A DNA stretch of 64,000 bases. Origin: Hormiphora californensis. Lineage: Eukaryota; Animalia; Ctenophora. The position numbers and the translations under genes are program-made. Location of the stretch: the NCBI GenBank assembly GCA_020137815.1, contig CM035350.1, positions 4,526,001-4,590,000 on the forward strand, written 5' to 3'. This document shows positions 1 through 47,527 of this stretch, in pieces. Under the pieces are notes generated by a model, which saw nothing but the letters and a program-made list of their open reading frames with translations, searched no databases and was not told the DNA's origin. How positions within the stretch are numbered: the first letter of the stretch is position 1; each line of letters starts with the position of its first letter.

Positions 1-17966
<17,966 letters not shown>

Positions 17967-18244
17967 GGGCTATACATTTAGAGGTGAGGTGGTTAGTATA
18001 AAAATTGAGGGGCGGGCTGTGGTTTTATTCGGGCTACAGCCGCTTCACTGGCTGGGTCAGCAGAAGCTGCGCGCGAGGAGTGTTGTAAAAGTCTGTCCGC
18101 GCGCCACGTCTTTGTCTCATTGTGTGTGGGTGAATTGTGGGACAGAGCTTGGCACACTCATCAGTCAGCGTGTAATGAGTAGAGAGGGGATTTATGGGGG
18201 CGGGAAATTAGGGAAGTTTCAAGTTTCAAGATTATAGTACTCAC

Positions 18245-18663
18245 GGTGCTAGGCACGGTTAGATCGACTACATCATGGATCTTGAATTTAGCCGCTGTTC
18301 CGACTCCATCTGTAGTAGCACTAGGAGGTGTAGTAGCACTCGTCAAGTCAACAACTGAAAAACAAGATGAATGTTAGATGAATATATTGGTAACTATGTG
18401 TGATTTATGAAGATAAGGATGTTGAGAAAGAAACAGTGGACATGCTAGTCAGTTATCTGTTGCCTTGCTCTGTTTTAACGGCCCCACACAGGAAACATAT
18501 GCAATGAGGGTACATAACAAGGTTTCTGTTGCTCACCAGGGGTCAGCCGAACTACAAGTTTGTTAAAATATATAAAAACCAATTACCCCACTGAAAACTA
18601 TTGGTTTGTACCTTCAGGACTGGTTGTTTTTCTCCGTTTCCGGTTCAGCTCATCGTCAGACAT
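18245..18663 (-). CDS. Two short coding exons (18612-18663, 18245-18354) encoding an NLS-like RKRRK and two VVDLT SUMO-interacting-like motifs; in frame with HEATR5 exon starting 17969
   Basis: MSDDELNRKRRKTTSPE|VVDLTSATTPPSATTDGVGTAAKFKIHDVVDLTVPST with canonical GT/AG boundaries and consistent phases (1, then 0). Confidence 0.65.
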
Positions 18664-26910: not shown

Positions 26911-29149
26911 TAAAAACAATGCAACAAATTAATTTATTTTAACCTTTATGTACTGATTACACTTATTGTTATATTCCGTATTAATGGGCCCGGTCAACCC
27001 GGTTTTTCAAAATCTTGATGAATGTTGTTTGTTGCTGAGCTGGTGTGTTATTAATGACTAATGAGGAGGTTAATTTTTTTAAATATCCTGTGTATTTACG
27101 AAAAATCATTTGAATTGAAATTTAATTGTTTCGGGGAATATTATTGTCCATACAAGGCATAGTTTTAGCAGTAAGCCAGGGCCCTGGGGGCAAAGACAGG
27201 AGCGTAGCAGGGTCCCTACTGCAGGAACGGAGTCCCTACATCGTGTCCCTGTGCTTCCGGGGCCAGGGACGGCAGCAAAGGTCAGGGGGAGTGAGGGTGT
27301 AGGGGTGGGGTGTATGGGTCATGCGACAGGGGGGGGCCCGGCCCAGGGGCTGCAAGCCCCGGTGGGGTCGAGGGCGTGAAGTCCCCCGGAATTGGCAAAT
27401 GCTACTGACCCTATTGGATAAGGCAGCGCTTTTCAAAGAGTTGGCAAACGCTGCTGGCCCCCGATAAGGCAGTGCTTTTCAATTCAAAGTGGTGAAAGTG
27501 GAAAAAGTGGAAAATTCCAACACAAAAGTTTGGCCTATGCTACAGGCCCTAAAGAAGAAGCCGTGGAAAACGCGCGCACTTGGGGTCTGCAGCGCATGCC
27601 AACACAAAAGTCCGAAACACGAAGCGAACAATAAAATATCGCTGAAGTACGATACTGAAACACGTTTAAAATGTAATGCGCCAATATTTATTTTATGTGC
27701 AACGCATTTACTCCCATGCGCACGATGCGCGCACTTGAAATTCGTGTGAATCGTGAAGTTGTTGTAGTGGAGAGCGCAGCTCCAGACCGCGCAATTCCAA
27801 GCCGCGCATTTTGTTCTTGTTTGCGCGCGCTCTGCCACTTGTTCGTCCGTACTCGAGCCAAACCGAAAATTTTTCATTTCCACTTCGGTGGATTCTGGGA
27901 GGTCCGATCCGGACGCTCTCTTCGATTTCGATGTTCTTTCTTTGTATTCTGTTTTATTTGTGCCGTTCTTGATTCCAAAGTTATAAATTCATCTTTACCC
28001 AAAATTTAGCTACTTTTTTATGTTTTTCGTTGAGAGAAATTTTTGAAAAAGCTTGAGCAGCCTTGAGCCTTGACCAAATGCCTGGATAAACAATTTGTCA
28101 CTGTTAACTACGTTTTTGCTAGTTGTGTTGTACACCTTTTTTAAGGTGTAATAGCTCTCACACGCACCGCCGAACTGTTCAAAAAGTCCTTCTATGGCCC
28201 TTATTGAGCCAATCTATCAGAGAAGCTTTAGATTTGTACCTCTTGTTCCCCGATCCCAGGGATGTCGCGGCCTGCTCTAGCGTGTCGTCAGAAAAACGTT
28301 TCAGTTTTTAACGTTAGTGTTGTGGAGAACAGTAGGGCTGTAGGCATCGATCAGTCTCTTTACCTTAGCGTTAGCAGTGTCGTCATCACGCAGCTCCTTG
28401 AGTCTACATTTCTGCTTCTCCACTTGATCAAAATCGTCAACCATTTTGGCTCAAATTAATTTGTTTAAAGTAGTGTTGAAAAGTTTGAAACTTTTTGAAA
28501 TTTGGATTTTTTTAGTATAATCAAAACTTGTGTTTCAATTTCATTTTTGAAATGTTAGAGCACTGGCAAACCTGTACCTCCTCCGCATTTATCACTTACC
28601 TGTCGTTCAATTTAACGAATTGGGCTAGTGTGCTATACATTTCGATATCTCTCGAAATCTTTTGCGAGTGGAGATTTTCGTCATAAAATAATTTGAGTGT
28701 ATTCTTTTTTCAATATAATTAATTGAAGCTTCTAAAGTAAACAACACCCACTGCACCATTGTTTGAAAAATACAGTTGCCTGAAAACCACCACCTCTGAT
28801 ACATATAGAATCAAAACCCAGACATGACAATGATCCATCAGAACCATTTTTCATAAACCAAGTGAGTTGTCTTGGAGATTCTCGATCGCAGGATATTCTA
28901 GTAACAACTGTTTTTACATCTTTCTACACCAATGTCGCAACATTATCCTCTACAATATATAACTATCTTTGCGCTACCCAGGTGCCAACTGATATATATG
29001 ATAAACACAGGAATAAAGACCAAGCTTCTACAACGTCCATGGCTGGGCAGGATTGCTATAGAACGTGGACTACAGTGAACACTCACACAACCAATACTAA
29101 GCTAGAGGTGAATTATCGCAGTAATACTACAGTAATAGTAATTTACTAA

Positions 29150-29560
29150 TTTCCCTTCCCTTGGCCTTCTCTTCCCTTGGCCTTCCCTTCCCTTGGCCTT
29201 CCCTTCCCTTGGCCTTCCCTTGGCCTTCCCTTGGCCTTCCCTTGGCCTTCCCTTGGCCTTCCCTTCCCTTCCCTTCCCTTCCCTTCCCTTCCCTTCCCTT
29301 CCCTTCCCTTCCCTTCCCTTCCCTTCCCTTCCCTTCCCTTCCCTTCCCTTCCCTTCCCTTCCCTTCCCTTCCCTTCCCTTCCCTTCCCTTCCCTTCCCTT
29401 CCCTTCCCTTCCCTTCCCTTCCCTTCCCTTCCCTTCCCTTCCCTTCCCTTCCCTTCCCTTCCCTTCCCTTCCCTTCCCTTCCCTTCCCTTCCCTTCCCTT
29501 CCCTTCCCTTCCCTTCCCTTCACTTCCCTTCCCTTCCCTTCCCTTCCCTTCCCTTCCCTT
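29150..29560. repeat. (CCCTT)n / (CCCTTGGCCTT)n simple repeat
   Basis: Pure pentamer run ~29260-29560 with an 11-mer variant at the left end. Confidence 0.97.
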
Positions 29561-30094
29561 TTCCTTTCTCTTTTCCTTTCCTTTCTCTTTTCCTTTCATT
29601 TCAAAACTCTGCCTATACGTAACTCCCCATCCTTCTCCCTGATGCAGGTTCAGTTGATTGGAAATGGGGGTAGGGCACTCAGACTACCCACACGAGTTAG
29701 GTAGCTCATTATTGATCCCACTAAACAGATGATATAGGAGATGTTGTTACCTTTACTGTTGACCATAACAACACCGAGTGTTCCACTGGAGGAGTTCTTA
29801 TACAGGGTAACTTATCAGGATTGACTGTCAAGGCTTTTTAATCGTCAAAGCTCTGTTATACCAAAATCATGTTTTACACGTTTTCCCTCCCCCTCAGGAC
29901 TTCACACTGCGCTATCAGAACGGACCAGTAATAATCGAGAGTTACTACTACACCCCTAACCATGTGGCTGCTGGTTGATCCAAGTTCGTTGGGGATAGAT
30001 GAGATCTGGTTGATATAGGTGACTGTGTGGGGCTGTGGCTAGTGTTACTGTCAGTTATGTCAGGGTGGTCCTGTTGAGAAAAAAACCACGCCCC

Positions 30095-30153
<59 letters not shown>

Positions 30154-30949
30154 TGGCGGACGACGAGAGAGATATAGAGAGAGGAGAGCTAGGAGAGGGC
30201 CTAGCCAGTCGAGAGCTAGAGATATAGATAGATAGTCGAGCTAGAGAGAGTATTCCGAGAGATACAGGCAGAGAGATCGCCGATCTAGATCGAGACAGGA
30301 GCGAGAGAGAGATAGAGCGAGCGAGAGAGAGATAAGGAGCGGTGAGCAGGAGAGACAGAGCAGAGAGCGGAGCGAGATATGAGAGAGAGCGAGATGAGAG
30401 AGGCAGAAGAGATATTAAAGAGAGGAGAAGAGAGAGAGGTGGAGTTGTCCACCTGCCACCACCTCCCTCTTTCGGTTTCCCTCCTCCTCCCCCGGTCAAC
30501 AGGGTCACCGGATGTCCCTTTTCCCCCACTCCCCATTTCCCTTGTTCGACTCCAAGGTCCGTGTGGCCGTTGCTAGCGTGGCTGTTATCAATAAATACGG
30601 AAAAAATTCATGAACTAGCAAACTCAAAAAAAATCTCTCTGCTAGCGGCCCCACAAGTTGGATAATCAACCAACCTATTACGTTCCGACACTACGTTCCT
30701 AACCCGCCTTCCCCTGGCTTTAGGTTTCCCGTGAACAGGCACCTTCCTTCCACCTGTTGGACCTCCAGCCCCTTTATCTAACGGACCCCGCCCGTGCCGT
30801 TGCTTGCCTGGTGCTGGTCTGCTGGCCACCCTGGACCTTTCGACGTGGGATCGCCGCTACGGACGGGGGTTTTTGGTTCGAGGTGGATTGTGTTTTTTTT
30901 TTTTTTCTTTTTGACCGGTTGTGGCTGGCTCCCCCTCTCCTGGGCGTGG

Positions 30950-31580
30950 TGGCTGTCCTCTCCGGTCAGTCTGAGCGGGGTGAGCTTTCCTCTCTGAGCG
31001 GTGGTGGCTTGTCCTCTCTGGAACGGGTGGGCTGCCTCTCTGGATTGGTTGTGGCTGTTCTCACGGGAACGGGGTGGCTCATCCTCTCTGTGAGTCGTTG
31101 TTGGCTGGCCTGTCTTCAACCTGGAGCGGCGGTGGCGTTCTCACTGTACCGGGTGCTATTCTTCTCTGGAACGGGGTGGCTGGTCTCGCACTGGAACGTG
31201 GGTGGCTTTCCTCTATCCTCTGGAGCTGTGTTTCTTTCCTCATGCTTGTAACGTTAGTTTCTGTCCTCTATCTTATCGGTTTTATTTCTTGGTTTTACTC
31301 ACTGGAACGGGGTGGCTATCCTCACTGGAACGGGGTGGGCCTGTCCTCCTCTGGAGCGGCGGTGTCTGTCCTCCTCTCCTGGAACGGGTTGGGCTGTCCT
31401 CTCTGGAGCGTGTGGCCCTGTCTTCTCAACTGGAACGGGTGGCTATCCTCTCTTGAGCAGGTGGGGCTGTCCTCACTGGAACGGGGTTTCGGTAGCTCTT
31501 CTGGAGCGGGGTGGCTGGCCTCACTGGAGCGGGGTGGCTATCCTCTCTGGAACGGGGTGGCTGGTCCTCTCTGGAACGCG
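30950..31580. repeat. Degenerate ~22-bp minisatellite (CTCTCTGGAACGGGGTGGCTGTC-like)
   Basis: CTGGAACGGG(G)TGGCT recurs about 20 times, in a noisy region. Confidence 0.7.
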
Positions 31581-34500
31581 GAGAATTGTCCTTTCCGGAT
31601 TGGTGCCCTGTCTGGGGCGGGTGCCCTGGTGGTGGGGGGTTGGTTAGTGGGTTAGTTTTGTTATTTGAGCCCATCTTATACCCTTCCTGCTTGCCCCTCG
31701 ATTTCCCTAGATTTCAGACGGTTTTGCATTCTTCTTCAGTTTCCCCGATAAGTTGTCCTTCTTAGGCTCCGTTGCAGATGATGGGCTTCTTCTGGATAAT
31801 TAGGAGTCCTTTGCTCCGCACCATGAGCTTTACATAAAACAAATCCCCCTTTTGTACTTTCCCCCCTTACTTTAAAAACCCCTTTGTGCCAATTGTGGGG
31901 GTTCGACTTAACCCTTCAATGTACACTTGATTTGAATCGACCACCTTTAACTACTACCTTTACTCCCGCAGCCCTCCTGGCCCTCAGATCCCACAGGATC
32001 CGGGCTTTCGGGGGATTTCCCCGACTACTCTTTTGCATGGGCATTACGGCCCCATGTGGGGTGGTGCGTGTAGTAGGACCGAGAGAGGCCAGAGAGAGGG
32101 ATTGTAGAGAGAGTCAGCAAGCCTCTTCGCTTCTCGCTCTCTAATCTTCATAGCATAGATCAGCCTAGATAGCTAGATATATATCATCTGTCTCCCTAGA
32201 TAGTCGTTCTACATAATCGCACTTGGTGGTTCCTTTATCCTGTTCGTGAGAGACCTTCCTCCCCATCGTTGTCTCATATCGTCTCACAACACTCCAAATT
32301 TAAAAGCTTTTTCCCAAATATTTTATTAAACTCTCTTGGTGGTGGTATCCAAATTTTACCCTGACTCATCGTTCATTCCCTGCTCTACCCTCCTTTGCTT
32401 GCGCCGCCCCTCTTTACAAATTTAAAAAAAAAACAAGTTATAGACGTCGTTATTGGTCTCATGCAGCATGCTTAGAATTTAGATATAGGGATTCCAACCT
32501 ACTCAGTACTCCTTGACATCATATCTATACCCACACACGCAATTCCCAGGTGTGCAACTGTTGTTGTCCTTCCAAAAATGTCCCTCAGAGGATAACTATT
32601 ATATCTCATACATCCAGCTACAAGCTGCAGGTGGAACAGGAAGAGCAGTGAATCACTGTCAGTGATCAATGGAAAGGGGTTATGTGTGCATGTTCGCGCC
32701 CCTCTTTGTTTCGCAGCCCGCCCGCTGTGGGGTATGGGCATGACATTATAAGGATGAAGCAACCGTGGTAGATTATGCTTTATAATTCTCTATATTTTAG
32801 TTTGACAAATGCAAGATCAAAAATATTTTAATTCTCGAATTTATTTTTTCCCTTCCTCTCTCACTCCTACCTTCTACCTGCCTACACCAAAATCTAACTT
32901 ACTTCCCCCTGCAACTTTCCAAGGAGTCCTCAGTAATCTGAGCGTGAGCTGTCCTCTCGATGCACTTCTGGGCTCGTTTCTACCGGTTCTCTCCTCCTCT
33001 CTCAGTCTCCTCCTCTCTCTGTGTGGTTCCTAAGCTCTCTTTCTTGTATGTACTGTAGTCCGGGATAAGATCTTCGCGTAGGTGTCCTACCTTCTAGTTG
33101 TGGGTGGTTGTGTTGCAGGACCGGATCCACTCGAAATGTGAATTGGTAGGTTGTTAATCAGGTTGTTTAGCAGACATAAACCCTGGCCCCCTGCCCCTAC
33201 TCCAACAACCGCCCATAGTAATATCTCCCTGGCAACCGTTTATCTTCCCGGGTTGGTATTAATTCCACAACCTTCTTTTTTTATCATTTGGGATGGTGAC
33301 CCCCGAAATTTATAAAACTTTCTTTCCGTTGCTTAGTAACCCGTTAGGCCCGGCCCGCCTGTCCCCTTGTGGCCCCTAACCAACATTCACACTTGCTATT
33401 CGCCAATAAGCAGTATAATATATAAGCATTATATTCTCTATACAGATAACGTTTACGATGATCGAACACGGAAACTTTCCCCATCTCTTTAAAATACAAA
33501 CCCTTCTTTTTTACCCTCTAACAATAACAACAACCCTTTCCCTCTCAGAAAGAGACTTCTCGTTGAAGATGAACAGCCGGCCCCAGCAGCCAAGAGCATC
33601 TCCGCTTGAAATCCTAGACCCCACTTATAAGGAGATCACATCTCGACCTTCAGCTGATGAATGTTGTAGGATTACTGTGATAAGGTTTTGTGGTCCCAGC
33701 TCTATCCTCGAAATAATCCCATTATGTTGTTTTTTCACTCAATCGCCTAACTGCTAATTTACAACTCTTCGTGTACTGTATAGCCCATGTATATCTAATC
33801 ACTTATTAACGACCCTTCTATCTGAACACCGAAACCCCTGTTTGTTCTTATCTATCTCACCAACGACCTACAACTACCCTAAACTCCCCGACGCCTTCTT
33901 AACCAGGCGCCTAACCCCACCCAACCCCATCTCCTCCCTCTCCGTGATCACCTCGAGGATCCATTCGACTTTGGAGTTGACTGTCAAACTGCAAGTGCGA
34001 CCACAATGTGTTACTATGAACGGCGACTGTGCAAGTTGGTTCTGTTTGTTTTATGTTATGCTGTGATGTCAGGACATTGAACAGAAATATAGCCTTACTC
34101 CCACTACACTGTTTATATTATATATATATTCAGTCCCCCTACACGTTATATCTATATCATATCATCTAGCTGACTGCGGTATTGGAATCCAGCTCCATTT
34201 TGTCTGTTACAAATGGAATAGGAATAACAGGTAATACTCATAACCTACCGACATGGTCCTATTATTAAAACCCCCTGTATTAGAAAGGAGAATACAGAGG
34301 CGGAATTTTCATTATAGAGTGTTGTGACTATCGGGCTGACCACCTAAACTGCACATCCTTTAAATTGAGATTGTTTCTTCCTGTTTTAATATTGCGGCCC
34401 CCCTCATTCCACGTACCCCACATTCGGTGTTTTGATACATGGTCCCTACTTTCTAACTGCTGTTCATAGACCCATTGTATGATATACCCTTCACCACGGT

Positions 34501-35029
34501 TTCTCAGCTCTTAATAATATTTTAGTTCGATACCAGATTTTTTTTCTGTTCTGCAATTCCCCATTTGTGGTCCTTTTCAAATCCACTTATACTATCGCTT
34601 CATCAATGGTGTCCTGCACGTTTTCCAATGCGACCCGGCGCACTTTTTGGTACAAAATCCATTTTCAGTCACACGTACACTAACAGTCCGACGAACTAAC
34701 CCGTACCTACCCACCCGCGCTAAAAACGTCTCTCATCGCGTGTCGGGAGAAGTGCACGTCAGCTCAATCATCGATGTCCCGCCGCCTGTCGGCGACTGTC
34801 GCCGCTTCTGTTTGGGGCGCGCACAACGATGGAGCAAGGATCCCCACTATTTGATGTGGTGCGCTCTGGGAGTGGTGTCTTTTGGAGGTGGTACGCTCTT
34901 GGATGGGGTGCGCTCTTGAACTTTATTATGGTTCCTTATTGGTTTTCTTGACAAAAAAGTGAAGAGTTTTCGAAAATCGCTTGAAAATATTTGTTGTTTG
35001 TCTTTTCTTTTTTTCTGGGTGTTTGGATC

Positions 35030-35050
35030 TTGAAAAGCGCTGCGTTATCC
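35030..35050 (-). promoter_or_regulatory. Copy of dispersed motif GGATAANGCAGCGCTTTTCAA (others at 26052, 27416, 27463, 61331)
   Basis: Five near-identical copies, all intergenic and upstream of genes; regulatory role is inferred. Confidence 0.45.
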
Positions 35051-35119
35051 CGCTGCACTGCTCATGTGCGGCCCCCTGTCCTTTTATTAAGAAATTCGAC
35101 TTTAAGACAGTATGTTTTT

Positions 35120-38100
35120 ATGACTTTCATTTCACTCAGTTCAATCACTCTTTCTCATCAATGGAATGTATTGAATTATTGCTGACTCATTCAAACTGCA
35201 TGCCGCTTCGATTACTTGGTGGTATCGCTCCCCATCCCAATCCCTTCTGTTTTCTTGGAGGAGTTCGAGACACTATCTACTTCATGGTCGGGCGGAAATG
35301 TCGGGAGAGGTCGTCAAACTTGGGGTTGATTTCAACATCCATTTACGAACATACATGAAGTTTTGTGTTGCTTGCCAAATCCTTCTGTGACATCCTGATG
35401 TCACTCTTTCCTTCAACACGCATCGGTTGAACACACCGCCACTCATGTCTCCTGTGGAATACAACTCGAGCCTAGTTCTCACTGCGACGAAATCTCCCCC
35501 TGATGCCTTCCAATATTAAATCTTGCTGTAGGATACTCCGCAAGCCGCCTGATCCACGCACTGGTTGCGTTTAAAAAAATAAATTTAAAACCTTCTCCAA
35601 TCGGCGGGGCTCCATTAGCGGAAGGACTTCATCTTCATTCAACGGACGGGATAAGTCAAAATTTGGATGTGGATGACACCCTTCGATGCACACCATCTAC
35701 TGAACCTCCTCCGCCACGCCTGCGACACATAAGAATTCCCTAGTGAACTGGTTGAGATCATTCCTGTATTATGACCTCTGTCCGATTTTTGGACGAACTT
35801 TGCCCGATTTAGAATTAAGGTTTTCCAGAAAATCTAGCCCTCCCTGGTTTTATAAGTGACATGTCAGGCGGCAAACGGCACGCAAGGAAAAGACCGAGCT
35901 TTGATTCAATGCTTACCGGGAATGATATATGTGTCCCTCGCATATACTGGTTGAATCTCTGAGGAATCTCAGACGGGAGGGACCGAAAAGAGGGCCATCA
36001 CGGTTCATCATCACTTCAACCAGAGAACGACTACTATCGGAGGAACTGGAAGAGGCTGGAATGACCAATCGGTAATATATCGAATTACTAATGGAATTAC
36101 TTGGCAAGGAGAAGAATCCGAGCACACTACCGGAACATGATGACCAGTTGATCTCTGTCAAAAATTCATTCAGTATTTCAAGGAAAAAGTGGACAAAATC
36201 TATTTGGACATCAAGAAACTACGGACAGAAGACGTCACCAGAGGACCCGAAACTCCCAGCCCACCACAACTCGATTCCTTTCGTGCATTATCTAGTGAGG
36301 AGCTAGTTAAAATTGTTCGATCAATGAACTAACAAACAATGTGACCTTGACCCTCTACACCATCAAAACTGGTCGGAGAATGCATCCACGAACTGATGCC
36401 GATAATATTGGCTATTGTCAACGGTAGCCTTACTAGTGGAGTGTTTCCCTCTACATTGAAAAAGGCCATGATACGACCGGTTTACAAAGGGAAAGGACTC
36501 GACTCGAACAGCATGTCAAGTTATCGACCGATTTCTAATCTGAGTTTTATCTCAAAGATTATTGAAAAGTGCGTTGCTCTACAGATTACAGAACATCTGG
36601 AAAGCCATGGACTTCTTGCCTCAGTTCAATCGGCATACAGACAGAAGCACTCCTGTGAAACAGCAACACTACGTATATTCAATGATCTGCTAGTTCTCAC
36701 TGATAAACGGAATAAGGCCGTTCTTCTCCTCTTGGATCTATCCGCTGCTTTCGACACAGTCCCTCACAACATTCTCATTAGCCGATTGGACAAGATGTAT
36801 GGAATCAAAGGGGTGGCTCTCGAGTGGTTCCAGTCATATCTGAAAGACCGGGTAGCAGTTGTCAAAATTGGCAAAAGTCAATCACTTCCTGTTAACATCG
36901 AAATAGGTGTACCGCAGGGATCCATCCTCGGTCCGTTACTTTTTATTCTGTTCACTAAGGACTTGGAAGCTATAGCGGCACGACACAAAACCAAGATTCA
37001 CCTCTACGCTGACGATTCTCAGCTATATGTCAGCTTCACAAACGATGCCTGGAACGAATGTGAGTCTCAACTCAAAAAATGTTTCTTGGAAATTAAAGCA
37101 TGGATGGCATCCAGTTACCTGAAACTAAACCCGGCAAAAACTGAGTTGATGTTCATTTCCTCTCGAACTGATAATAGTCCAAACCCACTGGATTATTCAG
37201 ATCCTCTAACATTGTGTGATGAGGAAGGACCCCTCTCGGCGACCATCTTTCCCTCCCAGACTGCCAAGAATCTGGGTGTTGTCTTTGATGAAAAACTTAC
37301 CATGAAAGAACATGTTTCAAAAGTTGTGAAGGAATGTAACTATAACCTTGTCAACCTCCGTAGAATTGGAAACAAGCTACAGAGAAGACACAAGGTTCAG
37401 CTGGTCCATTCGCTCATCCACTCTCGTCTGGACTACTGTAACGGCTTACTAATTGGTGCCGATAAATGTGACATTGCCAGATTGCAAAAAGTGCAGAACG
37501 CAGCGACTCGCTTTGTGTTTGGAAGGTGGCAGTGGAGGGGAGTTACAGACCTCAGGCGGCAATTACACTTTCTTCCAGTTGATGCTAGAATTGAATTTAA
37601 AATCTGTCTCATGGTTTTCAAGTGTCTAAACAATCAAGCACCACAATATCTTCAAAATCTAATAAACAAACGTCAGAGGAAAGGAAAATCACTACGTCAC
37701 GACGGTGATCTGACCCTTTTGGAAAGGGATTTTTCAACCAAGTACAAAACCACACAGCGTGCATTTCAAGTTTCAGGCCCGAGGATCTGGAATCAACTTC
37801 CCATTGACATTCGCAACTGTTCAGACGAGGAAACTTTCAAATCCAGACTCAAAACCCACCTGTTTGAAAAGTCGTATGGTGATTGGGATGGACTGTCCCA
37901 TTAATTTATGTGTACATCTATACGTCCGCTGCATGCACTGAGCTTCAGAATTATGGAGCAGTGATTCGCTCCACTCTTTTATTTCGTGATTAATCTCTTT
38001 TCTATGTAACTTATTACATTGATTTAACATATATTTTCATACATATAATTATTTCTTACTTAATCAAAAACATTAATTTATTATCTAATTATTATCATCA

Positions 38101-38279
38101 TATCTGGGCTATTAATATCACTCATATCATCTTTCTTTTCCACGTTGGGTTCACCGCTTTAGAAGGCTGGTAGGAGTGCTCTGGCGCTCATCGAGTAACT
38201 TAGTATGACGTTTATCACTCTTACTATTATTAGTCAAAAAGCGGGATGTTAAATGTACATTTTGATTGATTGATTGATT
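35120..38279 (+). mobile_element. 5'-truncated L2-group LINE (degenerate APE endonuclease + intact RT), (TTGA)n tail, 22-bp target-site duplication
   Basis: RT ORF 36396-37904 (YRPISNL, LLDLSAAFDTV, GVPQGSILGP, YADD, SRLDYCN). APE remnants (DFNIH ~35330). GACTTTAAGACAGTATGTTTTT at both 35098-35119 and 38280-38301. Confidence 0.92.
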
Positions 38280-38381
38280 GACTTTAAGACAGTATGTTTT
38301 TTAGACAGTCCGTTCGTTTCTGGTTTCGGTCCTCCTCTTCTTTCTCTGCCTCTCTACTTTAGAAACGTGGAGCGGAATGAT

Positions 38382-38698
38382 ATGGACCTTCAGACGATAG
38401 CAACATCTGTAGCATCAGTAATAGGGTCACTTGCTATCGTAGCACTCTTTATCGGTGCAGGTAAGAGTTGGATCTGTGTCAAAATTCATTGCGTGCTGCT
38501 CTTCATACAACACGGACTTGTCATTCAAATATCAATACAACATGAAATTATCTTTCAGCATGGTATATTCTTTGGCGATTGCTTCTATCAAAAATGCCAG
38601 TCTTCAGAGCTATCTTCGGCCTCGACAAAGAGGAAAAACGCCCCGGATCCGCCAACTCCAGCTCTTCGCGAAAAGCAAAAACTCGTAAAGCGGACTGA
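38382..38698 (+). CDS. SMIM13: Small integral membrane protein 13-like (72 aa), exons 38382-38460 and 38559-38698
   Basis: Spliced product MDLQTIATSVASVIGSLAIVALFIGAAWYILWRLLLSKMPVFRAIFG… resembles the SMIM13 core (WYFVWHLFLSKFKFLREL, from memory). Phase-1 GT/AG intron. Confidence 0.75.
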
Positions 38699-38880
38699 CA
38701 ATAACAAATTGTGACTGTGTGTAAAAACGATATTTATCGAACTTGTTCTTTTTAATCCCGTTGATTTCAGATTTATATTCCGTTGTTCTCTATTGAGGCT
38801 GTTTTTTATTATCCAATTCTCTAAAACTCTCCGGTTCGGACCGTGAATGTAACTTCTCCAGACTAAACATTTAGCGCTTC

Positions 38881-41336
38881 ATGTATTCTGTTGGTCGTAG
38901 AAACGAGAGACGATATGATACAAGCAGGCCAGAGCTACACGAGGTTAGAATGAACTAACTTACTAATAATTAAGGGTACGCTAACCAAAAATTTTTTTCG
39001 AGTGCAGGGAAATCTCTCACCGTAGGGTTGTAGGCCATGCCAAGGAGACCTCAAATATGCAATTTGAGCTCTCAAGTCGAATTCATATTTTTGCTACAGC
39101 TGCTTGAAAAATGAACTGAAAATAAGTTTTTGGCATCTCAAAAAAATTTTTTCAAAGATAGGAGCATGAATATTTGGGGATTTGAAGAGGACATGAAGGT
39201 GAATAACCACAAAATTTTTTTTTGCAATCCGAGCTGATTTCCGGTCCTGAGATGGATTTCTTTTTTTCCACTTTAACGCCCTATTTGGCAAAGTTCCGAA
39301 AACATGTGAAAGCTGTAAATTGGTGAAAAGTTGCGTCTAACGATTATCTAAGTGGCCATAAATTTTGGGCGTGTCCTTATTTGAGATAAGCTGTACAGAA
39401 TTTTTTTTGTGAAAGCCGTCATTTCAGAAATAAATAAATTCCCTGTATCTCAAAAACAGCTGATCGTAGAGACCTGAGACTATGCTTAAACGATTCAGAA
39501 GGTCCGATTTTGGGGGGGTCTTCTGAGAGACATTTTGCTCCTACTTCAACCGTTTTTGCTGTAATTGCGAAAAACAAATTCTATGAAAAGGGCAAAAGCT
39601 AAACTCCAATATCCTGTAATTAGGGAATTTTAGCTAAGAAAGGACCGAAACTATGGAAAAATGTTTAACAAGCTAATTCCTTCACTATTTGGTCCATATG
39701 GGTCCCTATAATCATCAAAAACAAAATCACAAAAAATCCACGATGGCGAAGATGGGTTATTGTTTTTCGCAATTACAGCAAAAACGGTTGAAGTAGGAGC
39801 AAAATGTCTCTCAGAAGACCCCCCCCAAAATCGGACCTTCTGAATCGTTTAAGCATAGTCTCAGGTCTCTACGATCAGCCGTTTTTGAGATACAGGGAAT
39901 TTATTTATTTCTGAAATGACGGCTTTCACAAAAAAAACTCCGTACAGCTTATCTCAAATAAGGACACGCCCAAAATTTATGGCCACTTAGATAATCGTTA
40001 GACGCAACTTTTCACCAATTTACAGCTTTCACATGTTTTCGGAACTTTGCCAAATAGGGCGTTAAAGTGGAAAAAAAGAAATCCATCTCAGGACCGGAAA
40101 TCAGCTCGGATTGCAAAAAAATTTTTTGTGGTTATTCACCTTCATGTCCTCTTCAAATCCCCAAATTTTCATGCTCCTATCTTTGAAAAAAAAATTTTGA
40201 GATGCCAAAAACTTATTTTCAGGACATTTTTTAAACAGCTGTAGCAAAAATATGAATTCGACTTAAGGGCTAAAATTGCATATTTGAGATCTCCTTGGTA
40301 TGGCCTACAACCCTACGGTGAGAGATTTCCCTGCACTCGAAAAAAATTTTTGGTTAGCGTACCCTTAAAGCTGTATAAAGTGCTGTAAGTGGAAATAATA
40401 CTCAAATTGTACTACCCTTTATTAGGAAGTGAGGTTGTTTAAGAATGCCAGGGAACGAGAGAAGTACGACAATATGGCGGATCTATTTGCCCTGATCCAG
40501 ACTCTCCAGTGTTTGGAGAAAGCGTACATTAAGGATGCTGTGTCAGCACGTGATTACACAGATTCGTGTGCTAAACTCCTTGCACAAATCAATGTACGTT
40601 AATGCGATAGTTTAGTTAGTCTCCTTATTGTCAGTCGATGTACGTTGTGCCAGGAACATACAAACATAATTATATGGCAATTGAAACCTAAATCATCCTC
40701 CTCCCAGGCTGCGTTCAATTTGGTAAAATCTTCAACATATCGAGACATTCCTACCTTCATGCGAGAATACTATTTGGACTGTCCTGCTGCTTTACAAAGA
40801 ATTGAAGAAGGAAAACCCATTACGGTACAGGACAATCAAGGTAACACAGGTCACAGTGATAGTTGTTGTAGTTTCATTGTAAATATTTTAGTCTTTGTCT
40901 GGATCAGAATGTGTCGACTAAGTTCCAATGTTGACCAACATTTCTCTCAGGAAACATCAGTAAGAGTGTGGCTGATGTTATTTCTCTTTACATTACCCTC
41001 TGTGATAAGCTGCAGATGGATATGAGGGCTAAAGATGAACTATACACAGATTTGAAATGTCTCACAGATGTTCTTGATAGAATGAGCAGTCTACCACCCG
41101 ATTTTGAGGGGAAAATGAAGGTCTACTTTTGGTAAGCTTCCACAATTGAAAAATCAGAAAATCTGGGTTGTAATTCCACACTTTTTGAACTTTAAATCCT
41201 AACCTTCGGTTCCAATGTCAGGGTCAAGGAACTGGACAAGTTATCTGCAGCTGAAACTCTCAGTGACGATCAAGTGAGACAGATGGTATTTGACTTGGAA
41301 TCAAGTAGAGAGGCATTTGTTCGCACTTTGGGATAA
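38881..41336 (+). CDS. VPS28: ESCRT-I subunit VPS28; exons 38881-38943, 40426-40593, 40708-40840, 40951-41131, 41222-41336
   Basis: RPELHE|[22 protein letters not shown]…[10 protein letters not shown]…[17 protein letters not shown]…DFEGK…[10 protein letters not shown]. All introns are GT-AG with consistent phases. Confidence 0.95.
38974..40364. mobile_element. Foldback-type non-autonomous DNA transposon, TTAA target duplication, GG…CC termini (Kolobok-like), in VPS28 intron 1
   Basis: TTAA|GGGTACGCTAACC … GGTTAGCGTACCC|TTAA. Near-identical inverted arms of ~600 bp (38974-~39577; ~39760-40364) around a ~180-bp spacer. Confidence 0.9.
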
Positions 41337-41745
41337 ACTGACAGATCTCTTATTGTTTAGGGTTGGGAGTGTGTCATAGGGGGACTATTTACCATAATTA
41401 GTTGTTTTCAGGGATTAGTAAACCTTGTACATTGAACAAGATAAATTCGAGTGTGTCGTATATCTTTTGTCCTTTCCATATTTTCTACTGATAATTAGAG
41501 ATAGAGCGATTGTTATGAAAAACAATAGTATTCTTTTTTCACACTGATGGCAGAGCGTGTTGCGTTTGTTAGACGGGAATATCTACGCTGCTGCCACTGA
41601 TTAGTAGATTGATATTACCAACCTAGAGTTTGTGTGCATTGCATTTTTGTAAATATTTATGTTTCTGATTTTACCCATTTCAAACTGATCCCATTTATAT
41701 CTCTCCATTATAATTAACACTCTCTCTCTCCCTCCCTCTCCCCAG

Positions 41746-43293
41746 ATGGCTAAGCCGGTTGTTAAGGTGCTAGTTGCTGGTAGTGTGGAGGGTAACGTCA
41801 AACAACTCTGTACACGGATTAACAATGTCAACTCAAAAAGTGGACCCTTCGATTTGGTCCTAATTCCTGGCCGGGTCATTGGGGACAATTTGGAGTCATG
41901 GTTAGCACTGCGTGACGGTACCCTCCGTATCGATGTACCTACGTACATACTCGGTCCAACAGAGTCCACCCAAGTCCCGTATTACTCCCAGATCCCCCCG
42001 GACGGGCAGGTGGCAGATAATGTGACCTACTTGGGCAGAAGGGGTGTCTACACCACCACATCGGGCCTCTCTGTTGCATATCTCAGTGGTCAGTACAGTG
42101 AAAAGGGAGGCTCCACTCACACCTATACCGCATCTGATCTATCTGTACTGCACGCTCAGGCTGGTATTATCCACGGCGTGGATATTCTCATCACCTCGGA
42201 GTGGCCGGAACACATCCTGAAGTATGTAAAAGGGCCCCAGAATGCACCCTCGGGGGTTGGGGAGGTATCTAAACTGGTCAACGTGCTGAAGCCCCGGTAT
42301 CACTTTGTTGCGGGTCCTCATTATGAGAGGCTGCCCTACCGGAACCATAAGATTCTCCACGAGCGAGCCCAGTACTGTACCCGCTTTATCTCTCTGGGCT
42401 GTGCGGGAAATAAGACGAAGTGCAAGTGGCTGTATGCCTTTAACATTACCCCCCTTAAACACATCTCAGATGAAGAGCTGAGGAAGCAACCCTCGGAGAC
42501 AACTGAGAACCCGTATATAGAGATGGAGAGGGAGGAGGGGAAGGTGGAGGACCGGAACAGGCAACACTTTTACAGCACACCAGGGGAGAAGAGGAAGATG
42601 CCGGGATCAGACCAGCCAAATAAGCGGGGTGATAGTTGTTGGTTCTGTTTGAAGTCTCCAAATGTTGAGAAACACCTAGTCATATCGGTCGGAGGGAGCA
42701 TGTATCTGGCGCTGGCTAAGGGAGCCCTATCGGCCGACCATGTCATGATTATCCCAACTAACCATATCAAATGTCAACAATTCTTAGACGATGATCAACA
42801 GGCTGATGTTGAGAAGTTCAAATCATCTCTTCGGAGCCTTTACAGGACTCTGAAAAAGAGCACAGCTGTATTCTTCGAGCGTTCACTGGCAACCTCTCAT
42901 CTCCAGATCCAAAGTGTGCCAATAGCCCGGTACTCGGTTGCCGACATTAAGGATGTGTTCTACAGGTTCTCCTCCAAGTTGTCCCTCGAGGTACAGGAGG
43001 TGCCTGCCGGTGAGAGTTGGAAGGATCTGGTACCTCCAGGTTGTGATTACTTCCTGGTAGAGTTTGAGAACCAGGACAAGATGTTGTTCCTGTGTTCCAA
43101 CTCGGTTCGGTTCCCCCTCCAGTTTGGAAGGGAGGTGCTGGCTTCTGAGGGGTTGTTGAACATGCCGAGGAGAGCTAATTGGAAACATTGCCAGGTGTCA
43201 AAGGAACAGGAGGAACACGACGTGAAGGAATTCAGGCAGCAATTCCAGGAGTTTGACCCCTTCAAAGTTGATAGTGACAGTGATAGCGACTGA
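41746..43293 (+). CDS. CWF19L1: CWF19-like protein 1 (Drn1; metallophosphoesterase-like + CwfJ C-terminal domains), uninterrupted CDS
   Basis: 515 aa with KSGPFD, GVDILITSEWP, LKPRYHF, YERLPYRNH, TRFISL, CWFCL.SP.VEKHL, YLALAKG and FPLQFGREVLA. Confidence 0.95.
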   Translation: MAKPVVKVLVAGSVEGNVKQLCTRINNVNSKSGPFDLVLIPGRVIGDNLESWLALRDGTLRIDVPTYILGPTESTQVPYYSQIPPDGQVADNVTYLGRRGVYTTTSGLSVAYLSGQYSEKGGSTHTYTASDLSVLHAQAGIIHGVDILITSEWPEHILKYVKGPQNAPSGVGEVSKLVNVLKPRYHFVAGPHYERLPYRNHKILHERAQYCTRFISLGCAGNKTKCKWLYAFNITPLKHISDEELRKQPSETTENPYIEMEREEGKVEDRNRQHFYSTPGEKRKMPGSDQPNKRGDSCWFCLKSPNVEKHLVISVGGSMYLALAKGALSADHVMIIPTNHIKCQQFLDDDQQADVEKFKSSLRSLYRTLKKSTAVFFERSLATSHLQIQSVPIARYSVADIKDVFYRFSSKLSLEVQEVPAGESWKDLVPPGCDYFLVEFENQDKMLFLCSNSVRFPLQFGREVLASEGLLNMPRRANWKHCQVSKEQEEHDVKEFRQQFQEFDPFKVDSDSDSD

Positions 43294-43451
43294 GTATTGA
43301 ATATATTGTTTTTAAGTGTGTGTGACATAGTTTTTAACGCTCTTTCAAAAAAGATTTATCAGATTATTATTTTGAGCTGTAACAGCTGTTATCCAATGTG
43401 TATCTTTCTCTCTCTTTATTTAACTTCCTATATCTTCCTCTATCTTTAGGG

Positions 43452-46400
43452 ATGACACTGATCAACCAGTGTAGCCGGCTCCTAGCCCGATCCAACCTCC
43501 GGAACCTCTCCACGGTGAGTTCTCTGGGCTTTAAAAAGAATTGTTGTAACAGCGTGTTCTAGAATTCTACACTGTGAAAAAGTGAAAACTTTTTTAAAAC
43601 TCATTCCCCCTTTTCAGAGATTTGCTCTACCAAAATCAGGACCCAAAGTTCGATATGTAAGTGTGAACATGAACTACCATTTCAATTTATGTTTCAATAA
43701 CTTAGATGCTCAAAAAGAATCTGACGGCTGATGAGGTGCAGGAATTTTCTCCTATGTTCTCTGCTTTCGCGACTTGATGTAACGCGCGAGCTTTTCAAAT
43801 GTGTTGGGAGGGAACAGTTAGCGCATTTCCATTTCACGCGCAACTCTGTCGTGAACTACCCCGGTGATGAACAACCGCTACTGTCACAGTTCCGTCATCA
43901 CCCCCTCAGAACTCACTCACAGTTTCCCTCTCTCCCAGAACTATGGAGCTGTGGGTCTGCTAGGAGCGGCTGTATTTTCAATGGGGGCTGCCCTTGTCGA
44001 CGGCCAGATTAGTGCCGACGAGCTGGAACTCGGACACGCCCACATGCACTGGGAATTCAACGAGCTGTTCAAGTCCTACGATCACAAGGCGTAAGTTATA
44101 ATCCTGATATGACCTCCCCCTCTCTATCTTGACTAACAACACAAGTTGCAAAACTGACACCCCCTCCCCTCTTCAGACTGCGACGAGGTTTCCAGGTGTA
44201 TAAGGAGGTGTGTCAGGCATGTCACAGCATGCAATACCTCTACTGGAGGATGCACGTTGATGTCACCCATGACGTGGATACGATGAAAGAGTATGCTGCT
44301 GAGTACCAGTATCCCGATATAGATGATGATGGTAACAGTATCATGAGGGCCGGAGACATCCAAGATTTCATGCCCGCCCCATACGAGAACGAGATCAAGG
44401 CCAGGCTGGCTAACAATGGTGCTCTTCCCCCTGACCTATCGCTCATCACCATTGCACGAGAGGGTGGCAGTGATTATCTGTTCGCCTTGTTGAACGGTTA
44501 TGAGGAGCTCCCTGCTGGAGCTGCCGAGCCGGCCGAGGGCCAGGCCTTTAACCCCTACTTCCATGGGTATTATATCGGTATGGCTCAGCAGATTTACAAC
44601 GAGAGTGTCGACTATGAAGATGGTATGTCTACCTGTTCCATTATAGAAACACTTTTGATTACACGTGTAAAAAACCAACTGCGAGAAGAAGTATTCACAC
44701 CTGAGAGAGATCTAATTTCCACCACCATTTCCAGGAACGATACCGTACGCCTCCCAGATTGCCAAGGATGTCTGTGAGTACCTAGCCTGGACCAGCAACC
44801 CCTATATGGACGAATCTAAACTTTACGGAATGAAGGTGAGTTGCTTTTTATTATTTTTTTCGTTATATTTTCTGGGGTACTAAACTGAGTCTCATACGAC
44901 CCGGAGATGGCTTAGCCCGGAACGCTCCGTTTATGTACAATCAAAACACTCGGAATCCCCCAAGAACTCATAAAACACATCACGTGAACATGTCAACATT
45001 GTATCGGTTGATCTGTGCCACTACGTCCGCCAGTTTCACATCACCCCGTCCTGCGTAGTCGATCATAACCAGGTTTATCGGTCGTCTAGTTGTCTTGACG
45101 ACCTCCTTGTTTATATCTATCAACTTGTGTAGCTCTGTCCCATCACACAAACCGGCTAGATCCCAGAGGCACAGACCGTATGCGAAGTACCAATCCACCT
45201 AGGGGGGGGGGGTATATAGGGGTTAGAGTGAAATTAGGGGGATTATTGGATGCCGAGATAATTGTGGGAGATGTCGACAACAGCCGTTACCTAAACAAAG
45301 GATTTTACCTGGAGGGGGTAGACATCATATTTAGCCCGAGGATTGCTAGTCAGCCTATGAACCATCTCGCTGACAGTAAAACACGATTCACTTCCCCCAT
45401 CCATCTTATAGGATTCGACCTGCCTCAGTGCATGGATAGGTCTTCTTGGGTTGAAACCCCCGTTTACGGTTACAACTAGCCGCTCATTCCGCCCAATGGC
45501 CTCCCCTAACACAGGGTTATCTGTCCTACTCAGCTTCACCTTTCCAGACCCAGTGATGAACCTGCTCAGCTCTCTAGCTAGGTTGTCCCCGATATAGGAT
45601 CGGGACTCCTCCGGGTGATCCTTCATTCGAACAACTACAATTTCGTCCTGGTGTGATCCAAGAAAGTTCTCAATTTCTGACATGGCTCGGCGGAGTGACC
45701 GGGAGTAAGCACAATCTGTTGCTCCACAGTGTACCAAGACAATCCCCTCCTCCCACCACTCTCCACTAGCCTGGCTGTGGGTTATATGGGATATGTCAAA
45801 ATCGAAGTATCGTATACCCTTGTTGAGTTGGTCAGTGATGGAGAGGTCTTGGTTTCTATAGAAACAAGATGGAGCTGCCCCGCCACTCCACCAATAAAGT
45901 TGTCCGAATGCACCCGCTCCCGAGTTATGGGTACCTGGGGGAATGAGAGTTCAGAGACATTTCATGATTACAATATACCAGTATATACCGCCCCAAGTTA
46001 TGACATACATTTATTACATTGCCAGATGTGTGACGTAATGCATTACAAAAACAAAGTGATGTCTTCTGATAACACCGCGACCTTCTAACCTGCCAGTGTA
46101 AAGTAGTTAAGGTGCAATCCACATGCCCCAGAGATACCATTGACCTTGGTACAAGTCCGGGCACTAACTGCCCCAACAATCCAAACGAAAACTAGAGTCA
46201 CTCTCATAATTTGAGCAGGTGTGAGAAAACCGCTTCGTTCTATGTTTTCGAGTCTCCATCCATCTTTTTCTGGATTTTGATTGATTTGATCCACCTGGTC
46301 GAAGTCGGTAAAAGTTTTTGTTCCGACTTTAAAATTGAGTTTTTTCTTCAGCTGGCTACTCCATGTGTCATAATCAAACTTTGAAAACATATGTATTATG

Positions 46401-46684
46401 CAACCCTTCATTGTTTTCTTCGCACCAAACCTAATTAATGAATCATTCCCCACCTGTTGACTATCCTAACCCAACCTTCCCTTCTCCAGGCGATTGCCAG
46501 TATCACCCTCTTCGGAGCCGCCATGTACGTTCTCATGCGAGTAAAGCGAAACCATATGCGAGTCAGGCAACTGGCCTTCGCTGTACCCGGAAAGGAAAAG
46601 AGCATATCCGCTAACGGCAATGTCAGCACTCTTTCCAAGTACAAACAAGTCGATGAAATGTTGGATCGGGCATCTAGAAAGTGA
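43452..46684 (+). CDS. CYC1: Mitochondrial cytochrome c1; exons 43452-43514, 43618-43656, 43939-44090, 44177-44622, 44735-44835, 46490-46684
   Basis: Arg/Ser-rich presequence, LRRGFQVYKEVCQACHSM heme motif, ANNGALPPDLSLI, FNPYF, QIAKDVCEYLAW, and a C-terminal TM anchor in the last exon. Confidence 0.95.
44980..46207 (-). CDS. Secreted PI-PLC X-domain (PLC-like phosphodiesterase) protein nested antisense in CYC1 intron 5; exons 46090-46207, 45309-45934, 44980-45198
   Basis: Signal peptide MRVTLVFVWIVGAVSA, then FTLAG|THNS, NQDLSITDQLNKGIRYFDFD, second His (LVHC), EIENFL…EIVVV and C-terminal NLVMIDY. Confidence 0.85.
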
Positions 46685-47527
46685 TGAGAGACACTTTGAA
46701 AAAGAGAGACCGTGACCTATCAGTCTGCAGCGACACATTTTGTTGGATGTTGTGGGATTATAGAAAACGGTAGTATCACGGTTTAACTACCGCCAATTAA
46801 GTTATTGTCATTATTTTGAGTCGATCACCCGTGAGCCCTCTTTTCCTGTTGTATTCTCGATTTAGTTTGTAAAGAACCAACAATGATTGTGTTTGAATTA
46901 TTTCAACAACCTCTCCTCGGCAGGAAATCTTGTAATTTCCTCATTTGGCGTGTGAAGTGATATTTTGGGATCAAATCCTGGACAGGATCGGAACACACAG
47001 GGCAAAGTAAAGATGCGCGCGTGGTCCAACGCGCACTGTCTGGTACAACACATCGGTGTACTTTTATCATCTCTAAGGCAGGAAAACTAGCAATACCTAC
47101 TGTGTGTAGTGAAAAGAGTGGACAGTCATGTGTATGTGTAGTTCGGAGGTGGGGCAGTTCCATTCACAGTACCGGTTATTATAGTCGCGTGGTATGTGGT
47201 CTAACATCATTAAACATACAGCGAGGGAGGGAGAGAGAGAGAGCGATGTTCGACAAACAGAAAACAATTAAGATTGTGGACTGGTAACTGTTTCGATCTG
47301 AATCGTCTATAAAAAACATTGCAAAGTCTGACATAAAACGGCCATCAAATATTCTGAAATTTGCTCTCACAATAATAGAAATAAAATGTAATAACTCAAA
47401 TTGTCCTCGCTCTTTCTGAGAAAGAATTATCCCTCTGTAGGCTCATAATAAGAGGAGCCGCCAGCCGGTCAGGTATGATCAACCCTTTCTCGCCTGATCA
47501 AAATGAGCCCCAGCTGCCCCTCTTTCT

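Follow-up and report, generated by a model that had tools for sequence, protein, structure and literature searches.

Four genes without any functional relation, placed one after another on the same strand and separated by very short gaps, raise the question of whether they are transcribed together. We have studied such a case in the ctenophore Hormiphora californensis, in a window of 64,000 nt of contig CM035350.1 (the whole stretch of DNA that was analysed; all coordinates are positions in it). Four intact housekeeping genes are found there head-to-tail on the + strand: a SMIM13-like gene, VPS28, CWF19L1 and the gene of cytochrome c1 (CYC1). It is probable that they form an operon resolved by spliced leader (SL) trans-splicing, with one pre-mRNA which starts upstream of the first gene. 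The SMIM13-like gene is the weakest link: its membership is only slightly favoured. The cluster is a strong candidate, not a proven operon, since we infer the polycistronic precursor and its single promoter. Operons of this kind have been described in nematodes, tunicates, flatworms, chaetognaths and Hydra.

The gene cluster and its conservation

The first gene (38382–38698, exons 38382–38460 and 38559–38698) codes for 72 amino acids of the DUF4750 family, which we take to be SMIM13. VPS28 (38881–41336) codes for 219 amino acids in five exons: 38881–38943, 40426–40593, 40708–40840, 40951–41131 and 41222–41336. CWF19L1 (41746–43293, 515 amino acids) has a single exon. CYC1 (43452–46684, 331 amino acids) has six: 43452–43514, 43618–43656, 43939–44090, 44177–44622, 44735–44835 and 46490–46684. 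The identity of all four is backed by Pfam matches; their models have GT..AG introns, no internal stop and one terminal stop each. Six of the ten predicted introns are confirmed by RNA contigs, namely VPS28 intron 4 (runs X1 and X3) and CYC1 introns 1–5. The other four, without RNA cover in the comparison, are based on full-length matches to ctenophore orthologs.

The gaps from stop to ATG measure 182 nt (gap 1, 38699–38880), 409 nt (gap 2, 41337–41745) and 158 nt (gap 3, 43294–43451). This layout had been described in a first-pass annotation made from the sequence, and all its coordinates check. Two further co-oriented gaps of the window could be measured; they span 1113 and about 4760 nt, against 158–409 nt in the cluster.

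The best named matches come from ctenophores: Mnemiopsis leidyi, Bolinopsis microptera and Pleurobrachia bachei. By these matches the window is Pleurobrachia-like. In Mnemiopsis the orthologs of VPS28 (86% identity, P0319), CWF19L1 (69%, P0122) and CYC1 (73%, P0336) have the consecutive tags ACHWQZ_G008351, G008352 and G008353 (KAL5262917.1, 918.1 and 919.1), all on one record of 21,511,028 bp. Gene order in relatives had been proposed as a check, and it is thus kept for three of the four genes. This is notable because little gene order is shared between these animals: colinear blocks of Hormiphora and Mnemiopsis contain four genes at most (PMC8527503), and after 160–260 million years the chromosomes of lobate and cydippid ctenophores can be matched to each other, but their gene order is not conserved (PMC10232365).

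The gene models of P. bachei are 94–99% identical for VPS28 and CWF19L1. In one of them, sb/3461846, the SMIM13 region (out of frame) is joined to VPS28 (present twice) and to CWF19L1; operons are known to be mis-annotated in this way, as fused genes (PMC7986045). The VPS28 part of this model begins two residues upstream of the VPS28 Met and the CWF19L1 part at the Met, and therefore the acceptor spacing should be the same in P. bachei. Four ENA record sizes (311,076; 2,960,320; 165,774; 69,644) are common to a CWF19L1 ortholog and a piece of CYC1 or VPS28, which suggests, from equal record size only, that these pairs are co-located.

Bolinopsis has two CYC1 entries (P0133/P0313) and two VPS28 entries (P0195/P0320) on one 26.2-Mb record, which suggests that the block is duplicated or that a haplotype was retained; no CWF19L1 of this species is present among the matches listed. 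A metagenome scan gave 10 loci with 29–52% identity, none of them ctenophore-like.

Spliced leader, acceptors and 3' ends

The RNA data are assembled contigs of thin cover and without strand information, in which an uncovered site is no evidence of absence. Seven runs match the locus, all with less than half of the sequence words searched for. Runs X1–X4 were compared with positions 40380–47300 and runs X1, X3, X5 and X6 with 38040–38965. In one contig, X3 record 16, ten loose non-genomic letters, AATTAATTTG, stand directly before 43448 and are followed by the genomic AG at 43448–49. Together, AATTAATTTG and AG are the last 12 letters of the Hormiphora leader printed in PMC8527503, and therefore SL trans-splicing of CYC1 takes place precisely at the predicted AG 43448–49, as observed on one contig from a close relative (9 of the 13 X3 contigs on 40380–47300 are 95–99% identical). 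SL trans-splicing in ctenophores is recognized by a non-genomic leader ending in AATTTGAG joined at an AG acceptor, and this is what we have found. The 12 letters seen at the junction match the general Hormiphora leader. SL addition had been proposed at all four AGs: it stands for CYC1, on one contig in one of four runs (the X1 contig does not reach this acceptor, which is left uncovered by X2 and X4), while the acceptors of VPS28 and CWF19L1 lack RNA cover.

The window also has a genomic copy of the leader on the – strand, at 28450–28493. Compared by eye, 43 of its 44 letters are those printed for Hormiphora (PMC8527503), and therefore this genome has the same leader. An ATG comes 5 nt later, with a short open reading frame, and no GT donor follows: the copy resembles the start of a retroelement that was made from a leader-spliced RNA.

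As the first-pass annotation had noted, an acceptor-like YAG (Y is a pyrimidine) precedes each ATG of the cluster, at distances from AG to ATG of 19, 6, 0 and 2 nt in gene order; the 20 nt before each YAG contain 18, 12, 20 and 17 pyrimidines. The SMIM13-like gene has a TAG (AG 38361–38362) as candidate SL site, and CWF19L1 a CAG (AG 41744–45) directly before its ATG. In gap 3 there is no other AG for 62 nt before the CYC1 acceptor. The VPS28 acceptor (AG 38873–74, with an alternative AG at 38860–61 preceded by 11 of 20 pyrimidines) is weak and ordinary: 28% of the 3728 YAGs in the window reach 12 pyrimidines. A YAG within 20 nt and at least 16 pyrimidines are found at 2.6% of the 2038 ATGs of the window, against three of the four in the cluster (binomial probability about 7e-5 by our own arithmetic).

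The distance from the 3' end of one gene to the next acceptor appears to be short. RNA cover in gap 2 ends at about 41638 (inferred from depth and contig-end values), some 105 nt from the next AG. In gap 3 it ends at 43320 in one contig and at 43322 in another (X3 and X4), at most 125 nt from AG 43448–49. We have not accepted 43320/43322 as a poly(A) site: both contigs stop inside a GT repeat. No AATAAA is present in any of the three gaps. On the + strand TGTAAA or TGTAAC is found at 38720, 38848, 41648, 43378 and 46868, that is, in every gap and 12–15 nt before the end of CYC1 RNA; it is a possible 3'-end signal, noticed post hoc.

CYC1 has its own leader and its own 3' end in the RNA contigs. 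Its RNA ends near 46879–46883; an A-run after 46883 in X2 is a mere hint of the 3' end, as the letters that follow look like a fold-back. Stand-alone proteins of ctenophore VPS28 (220–221 amino acids) and CWF19L1 (516–520 amino acids) are found on short contigs. The greater contig depth of CYC1, compared with VPS28 or CWF19L1, was not used as an expression ranking: contig depths cannot rank genes.

These features suggest the following scheme. One promoter upstream of the SMIM13-like gene would drive a single pre-mRNA. A 3' end would be formed after each gene and the leader would be added about 100–125 nt later, at the next AG; the joint is seen directly in CYC1 and would occur in the same way at the AGs of the SMIM13-like gene, VPS28 and CWF19L1.

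Operon or separate promoters

Several observations weigh against this interpretation. The acceptors do not distinguish the cluster: we compared five other putative starts of the window, chosen from features of their open reading frames without RNA verification, and at four of them (a zinc-finger gene, a protease and two starts at the 5' end of HEATR5) a YAG preceded by 13–18 pyrimidines lies no more than 20 nt away; the fifth, the antisense gene nested in CYC1 intron 5, has none. The leader is present on at least 56% of Hormiphora reads (PMC8527503). Since the leader is so frequent and acceptors are found at four of five other starts, SL sites do not mark operons; an acceptor before the ATG, on which the first-pass annotation had relied, is general to genes of this genome and marks trans-splicing in general. 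What sets the cluster apart is its spacing and its conserved order.

The RNA data also leave much of the cluster uncovered. The leader is observed at one of four acceptors, on a single contig of a relative mostly 95–99% identical. The CWF19L1 acceptor has no cover in any of runs X1–X4, nor have the VPS28 acceptor and gap 1 in X1, X3, X5 and X6. A 133-nt contig of X1 (38294–38426) passes unspliced through the acceptor of the SMIM13-like gene, and fits an outron, pre-mRNA, mRNA without trans-splicing or DNA. RNA across the gaps was one of the checks proposed: in these thin contigs no bridging is found in any of four runs, either for gaps 2 and 3 or for gap 1, and the only leader joint is that of CYC1. 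In Mnemiopsis the order is read from locus tags. Finally, a spliced antisense gene lies in CYC1 intron 5, and therefore one or more further promoters must be present at the locus.

The SMIM13-like gene has difficulties of its own. Its linkage is seen within Pleurobrachia only, and the search for its relatives gave one cluster without a named ortholog. All five members of this cluster are 56–58% identical over the complete 72 amino acids, on contigs of 921–1075 nt, which exceeds the possible length of a monocistronic SMIM13 mRNA in this layout. Either these relatives have long untranslated regions (UTRs) and no tight linkage, or the contigs run into the next gene.

The best surviving alternative is that each gene has its own promoter, placed in the gap or within the last part of the gene before it, with a short outron and monocistronic SL trans-splicing; gene order would be kept as the regulatory sequences overlap the neighbour. 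SL addition is common in ctenophores, unclustered genes have the same acceptor layout, the nested antisense gene must have its promoter within narrow limits and no contig bridges a gap, all of which agree with separate promoters. However at most 125 nt are left in gap 3 after the 3' end of CWF19L1, much of it pyrimidine tract, and there are three such gaps in a row. The order is kept in Mnemiopsis, and a comparable gap of 436 bp in Hydra has no promoter activity (PMC3273482). We consider separate promoters rather unlikely.

A second alternative overlaps with the four-gene operon and differs in extent only: part of the cluster would be co-transcribed, for example VPS28, CWF19L1 and CYC1 without SMIM13, or CYC1 would also be fed by an internal promoter. 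The linkage of SMIM13, seen in Pleurobrachia only, the long contigs of its relatives, the weak VPS28 acceptor and an inserted long interspersed element (LINE) which ends 59 nt before the first acceptor point in this direction. On the other hand the 182 nt of gap 1 must hold the 3' UTR of SMIM13, and in the P. bachei model the VPS28 Met is preceded by the same two residues, a sign of the same acceptor spacing. Such a shorter or mixed operon appears improbable.

It is hardly credible that the AGs are cis acceptors of small upstream non-coding exons or that the mRNAs are stably dicistronic or fused: VPS28 and CWF19L1 can be joined in silico by cis-splicing (the P. bachei model is an example), GT sites with five of six consensus letters occur in every gap and SMIM13-VPS28 might be one stable mRNA, whereas the 5' end of CYC1 is a non-genomic leader, no leader copy linked to a donor is present on the + strand of the window, and ctenophore VPS28 and CWF19L1 occur as separate proteins of the lengths given above.

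Surroundings of the cluster and known operons

A LINE of 3.2 kb occupies positions 35098–38301 on the + strand. It has an intact reverse transcriptase reading frame (36351–37904, Pfam RVT_1), a 5' part broken by stops and a TTGA-repeat tail at about 38262–38281. It lies between 22-nt direct repeats (35098–35119 and 38280–38301), a target-site duplication. Loose ends of other LINE copies appear in RNA contigs at 38277 and 38281. The element is likely to be in the outron or in the promoter region of the SMIM13-like gene. The original promoter may lie upstream of 35098, or transcription may now start in the LINE or read through it; in an operon the promoter would be at the LINE or upstream of it, and LINE sequence would be discarded with the outron. 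A Pfam search of 101 short open reading frames in 27400–36330 gave nothing convincing, and no gene was identified there upstream of the LINE. At the other end, a zinc-finger gene on the – strand converges on CYC1 from downstream, and therefore the cluster ends at CYC1.

VPS28 intron 1 contains a foldback element of 1.4 kb (38970–40368), with 609-nt arms 97% complementary and TTAA on both flanks. Its termini GG..CC point to a possible non-autonomous transposon of Kolobok-like type. A protein of a relative (P0322) reads through the position of this intron, which may be lineage-specific.

The antisense gene nested in CYC1 intron 5 (44980–46207, – strand) codes for a protein with a hydrophobic N-terminus; its PI-PLC-X match is weak (E 0.0018) and does not reach the Pfam cut-off. 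It is spliced in RNA, with a CT..AC joint near 45196/45307 in X2. No acceptor-like YAG is found within 20 nt of its putative ATG, and it may not be trans-spliced.

Farther away, on the – strand at 17966–18663, two small exons starting from an ATG at 18663 have two VVDLT motifs, which we assume to be SUMO-binding-like, as in RNF4. The HEATR5 ATG at 17966 is preceded, 3 nt away, by a TAG to which these exons can be spliced in frame. They either extend HEATR5 at its N-terminus or belong to a separate gene in which HEATR5 is nested in the same direction. Opposite HEATR5, within the span of the HEATR5-like matches (163–17969), a reading frame of a seven-transmembrane receptor (13792–14898, + strand) adjoins a reverse transcriptase reading frame (12426–13784). 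Rfam has no match in the window.

The closest proven case is the RFC140-flp operon of Hydra (PMC3273482), also from a non-bilaterian animal, with co-oriented genes, a short gap and a pyrimidine tract with AG near the ATG. Its downstream gene receives a general leader, as CYC1 does. However it has two genes and was proven with reporters, whereas in Hormiphora we infer the co-transcription of four; the phylum and the leader are also different, and here the order is kept across two ctenophore orders. [quoted passage not shown] This working definition fits our cluster, directly in gaps 1 and 3 and, when the 3' UTR is taken into account, in gap 2. The chaetognath call is genome-wide, with 18% of genes, whereas ours concerns one locus.

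Other comparisons come from PMC7986045. In C. elegans there are about 100 bp from the 3' end to the acceptor, near the values of about 105 and 125 nt found here. The single leader used by Ciona and Oikopleura for mono- and polycistronic genes would fit the cluster, whereas both Ciona (median 1 bp) and Oikopleura (60-bp cut-off) have a shorter spacing. SL trans-splicing as described for H. californensis itself (PMC8527503) has in common with our locus the leader, the nested genes and the family Pleurobrachiidae.

The same paper, of 2021 (PMC7986045), places ctenophores among the groups with SL trans-splicing and no reported operons. The words "operon" and "polycistron" do not occur in the main text of the Hormiphora genome paper (PMC8527503). 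We found no report of a ctenophore operon in titles and openings of abstracts, a survey with few subscription papers and no supplements, which makes the absence uncertain. There is nothing on ctenophore operons in the available parts of PMC12221973, PMC10282587 and PMC11184263, or in a term search of PMC11797021; "leader" has no match in PMC12221973, PMC11797021 and PMC11184263. The cluster is thus likely to extend SL-resolved operons to a phylum where they are seemingly unreported.

If this is true, a conserved operon in ctenophores would bring the deepest-branching animal phylum into the group of those with operons, and would be relevant to the question of whether the origin of SL trans-splicing is always followed by operons. 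It would give a testable reason for the residual microsynteny of ctenophores. It would also be a warning that gene models fuse such genes, as the P. bachei model does, and a warning against equating annotated 5' ends with promoters. The 158 nt of gap 3 could then serve as a cassette for the expression of two genes in Mnemiopsis, as in Hydra.

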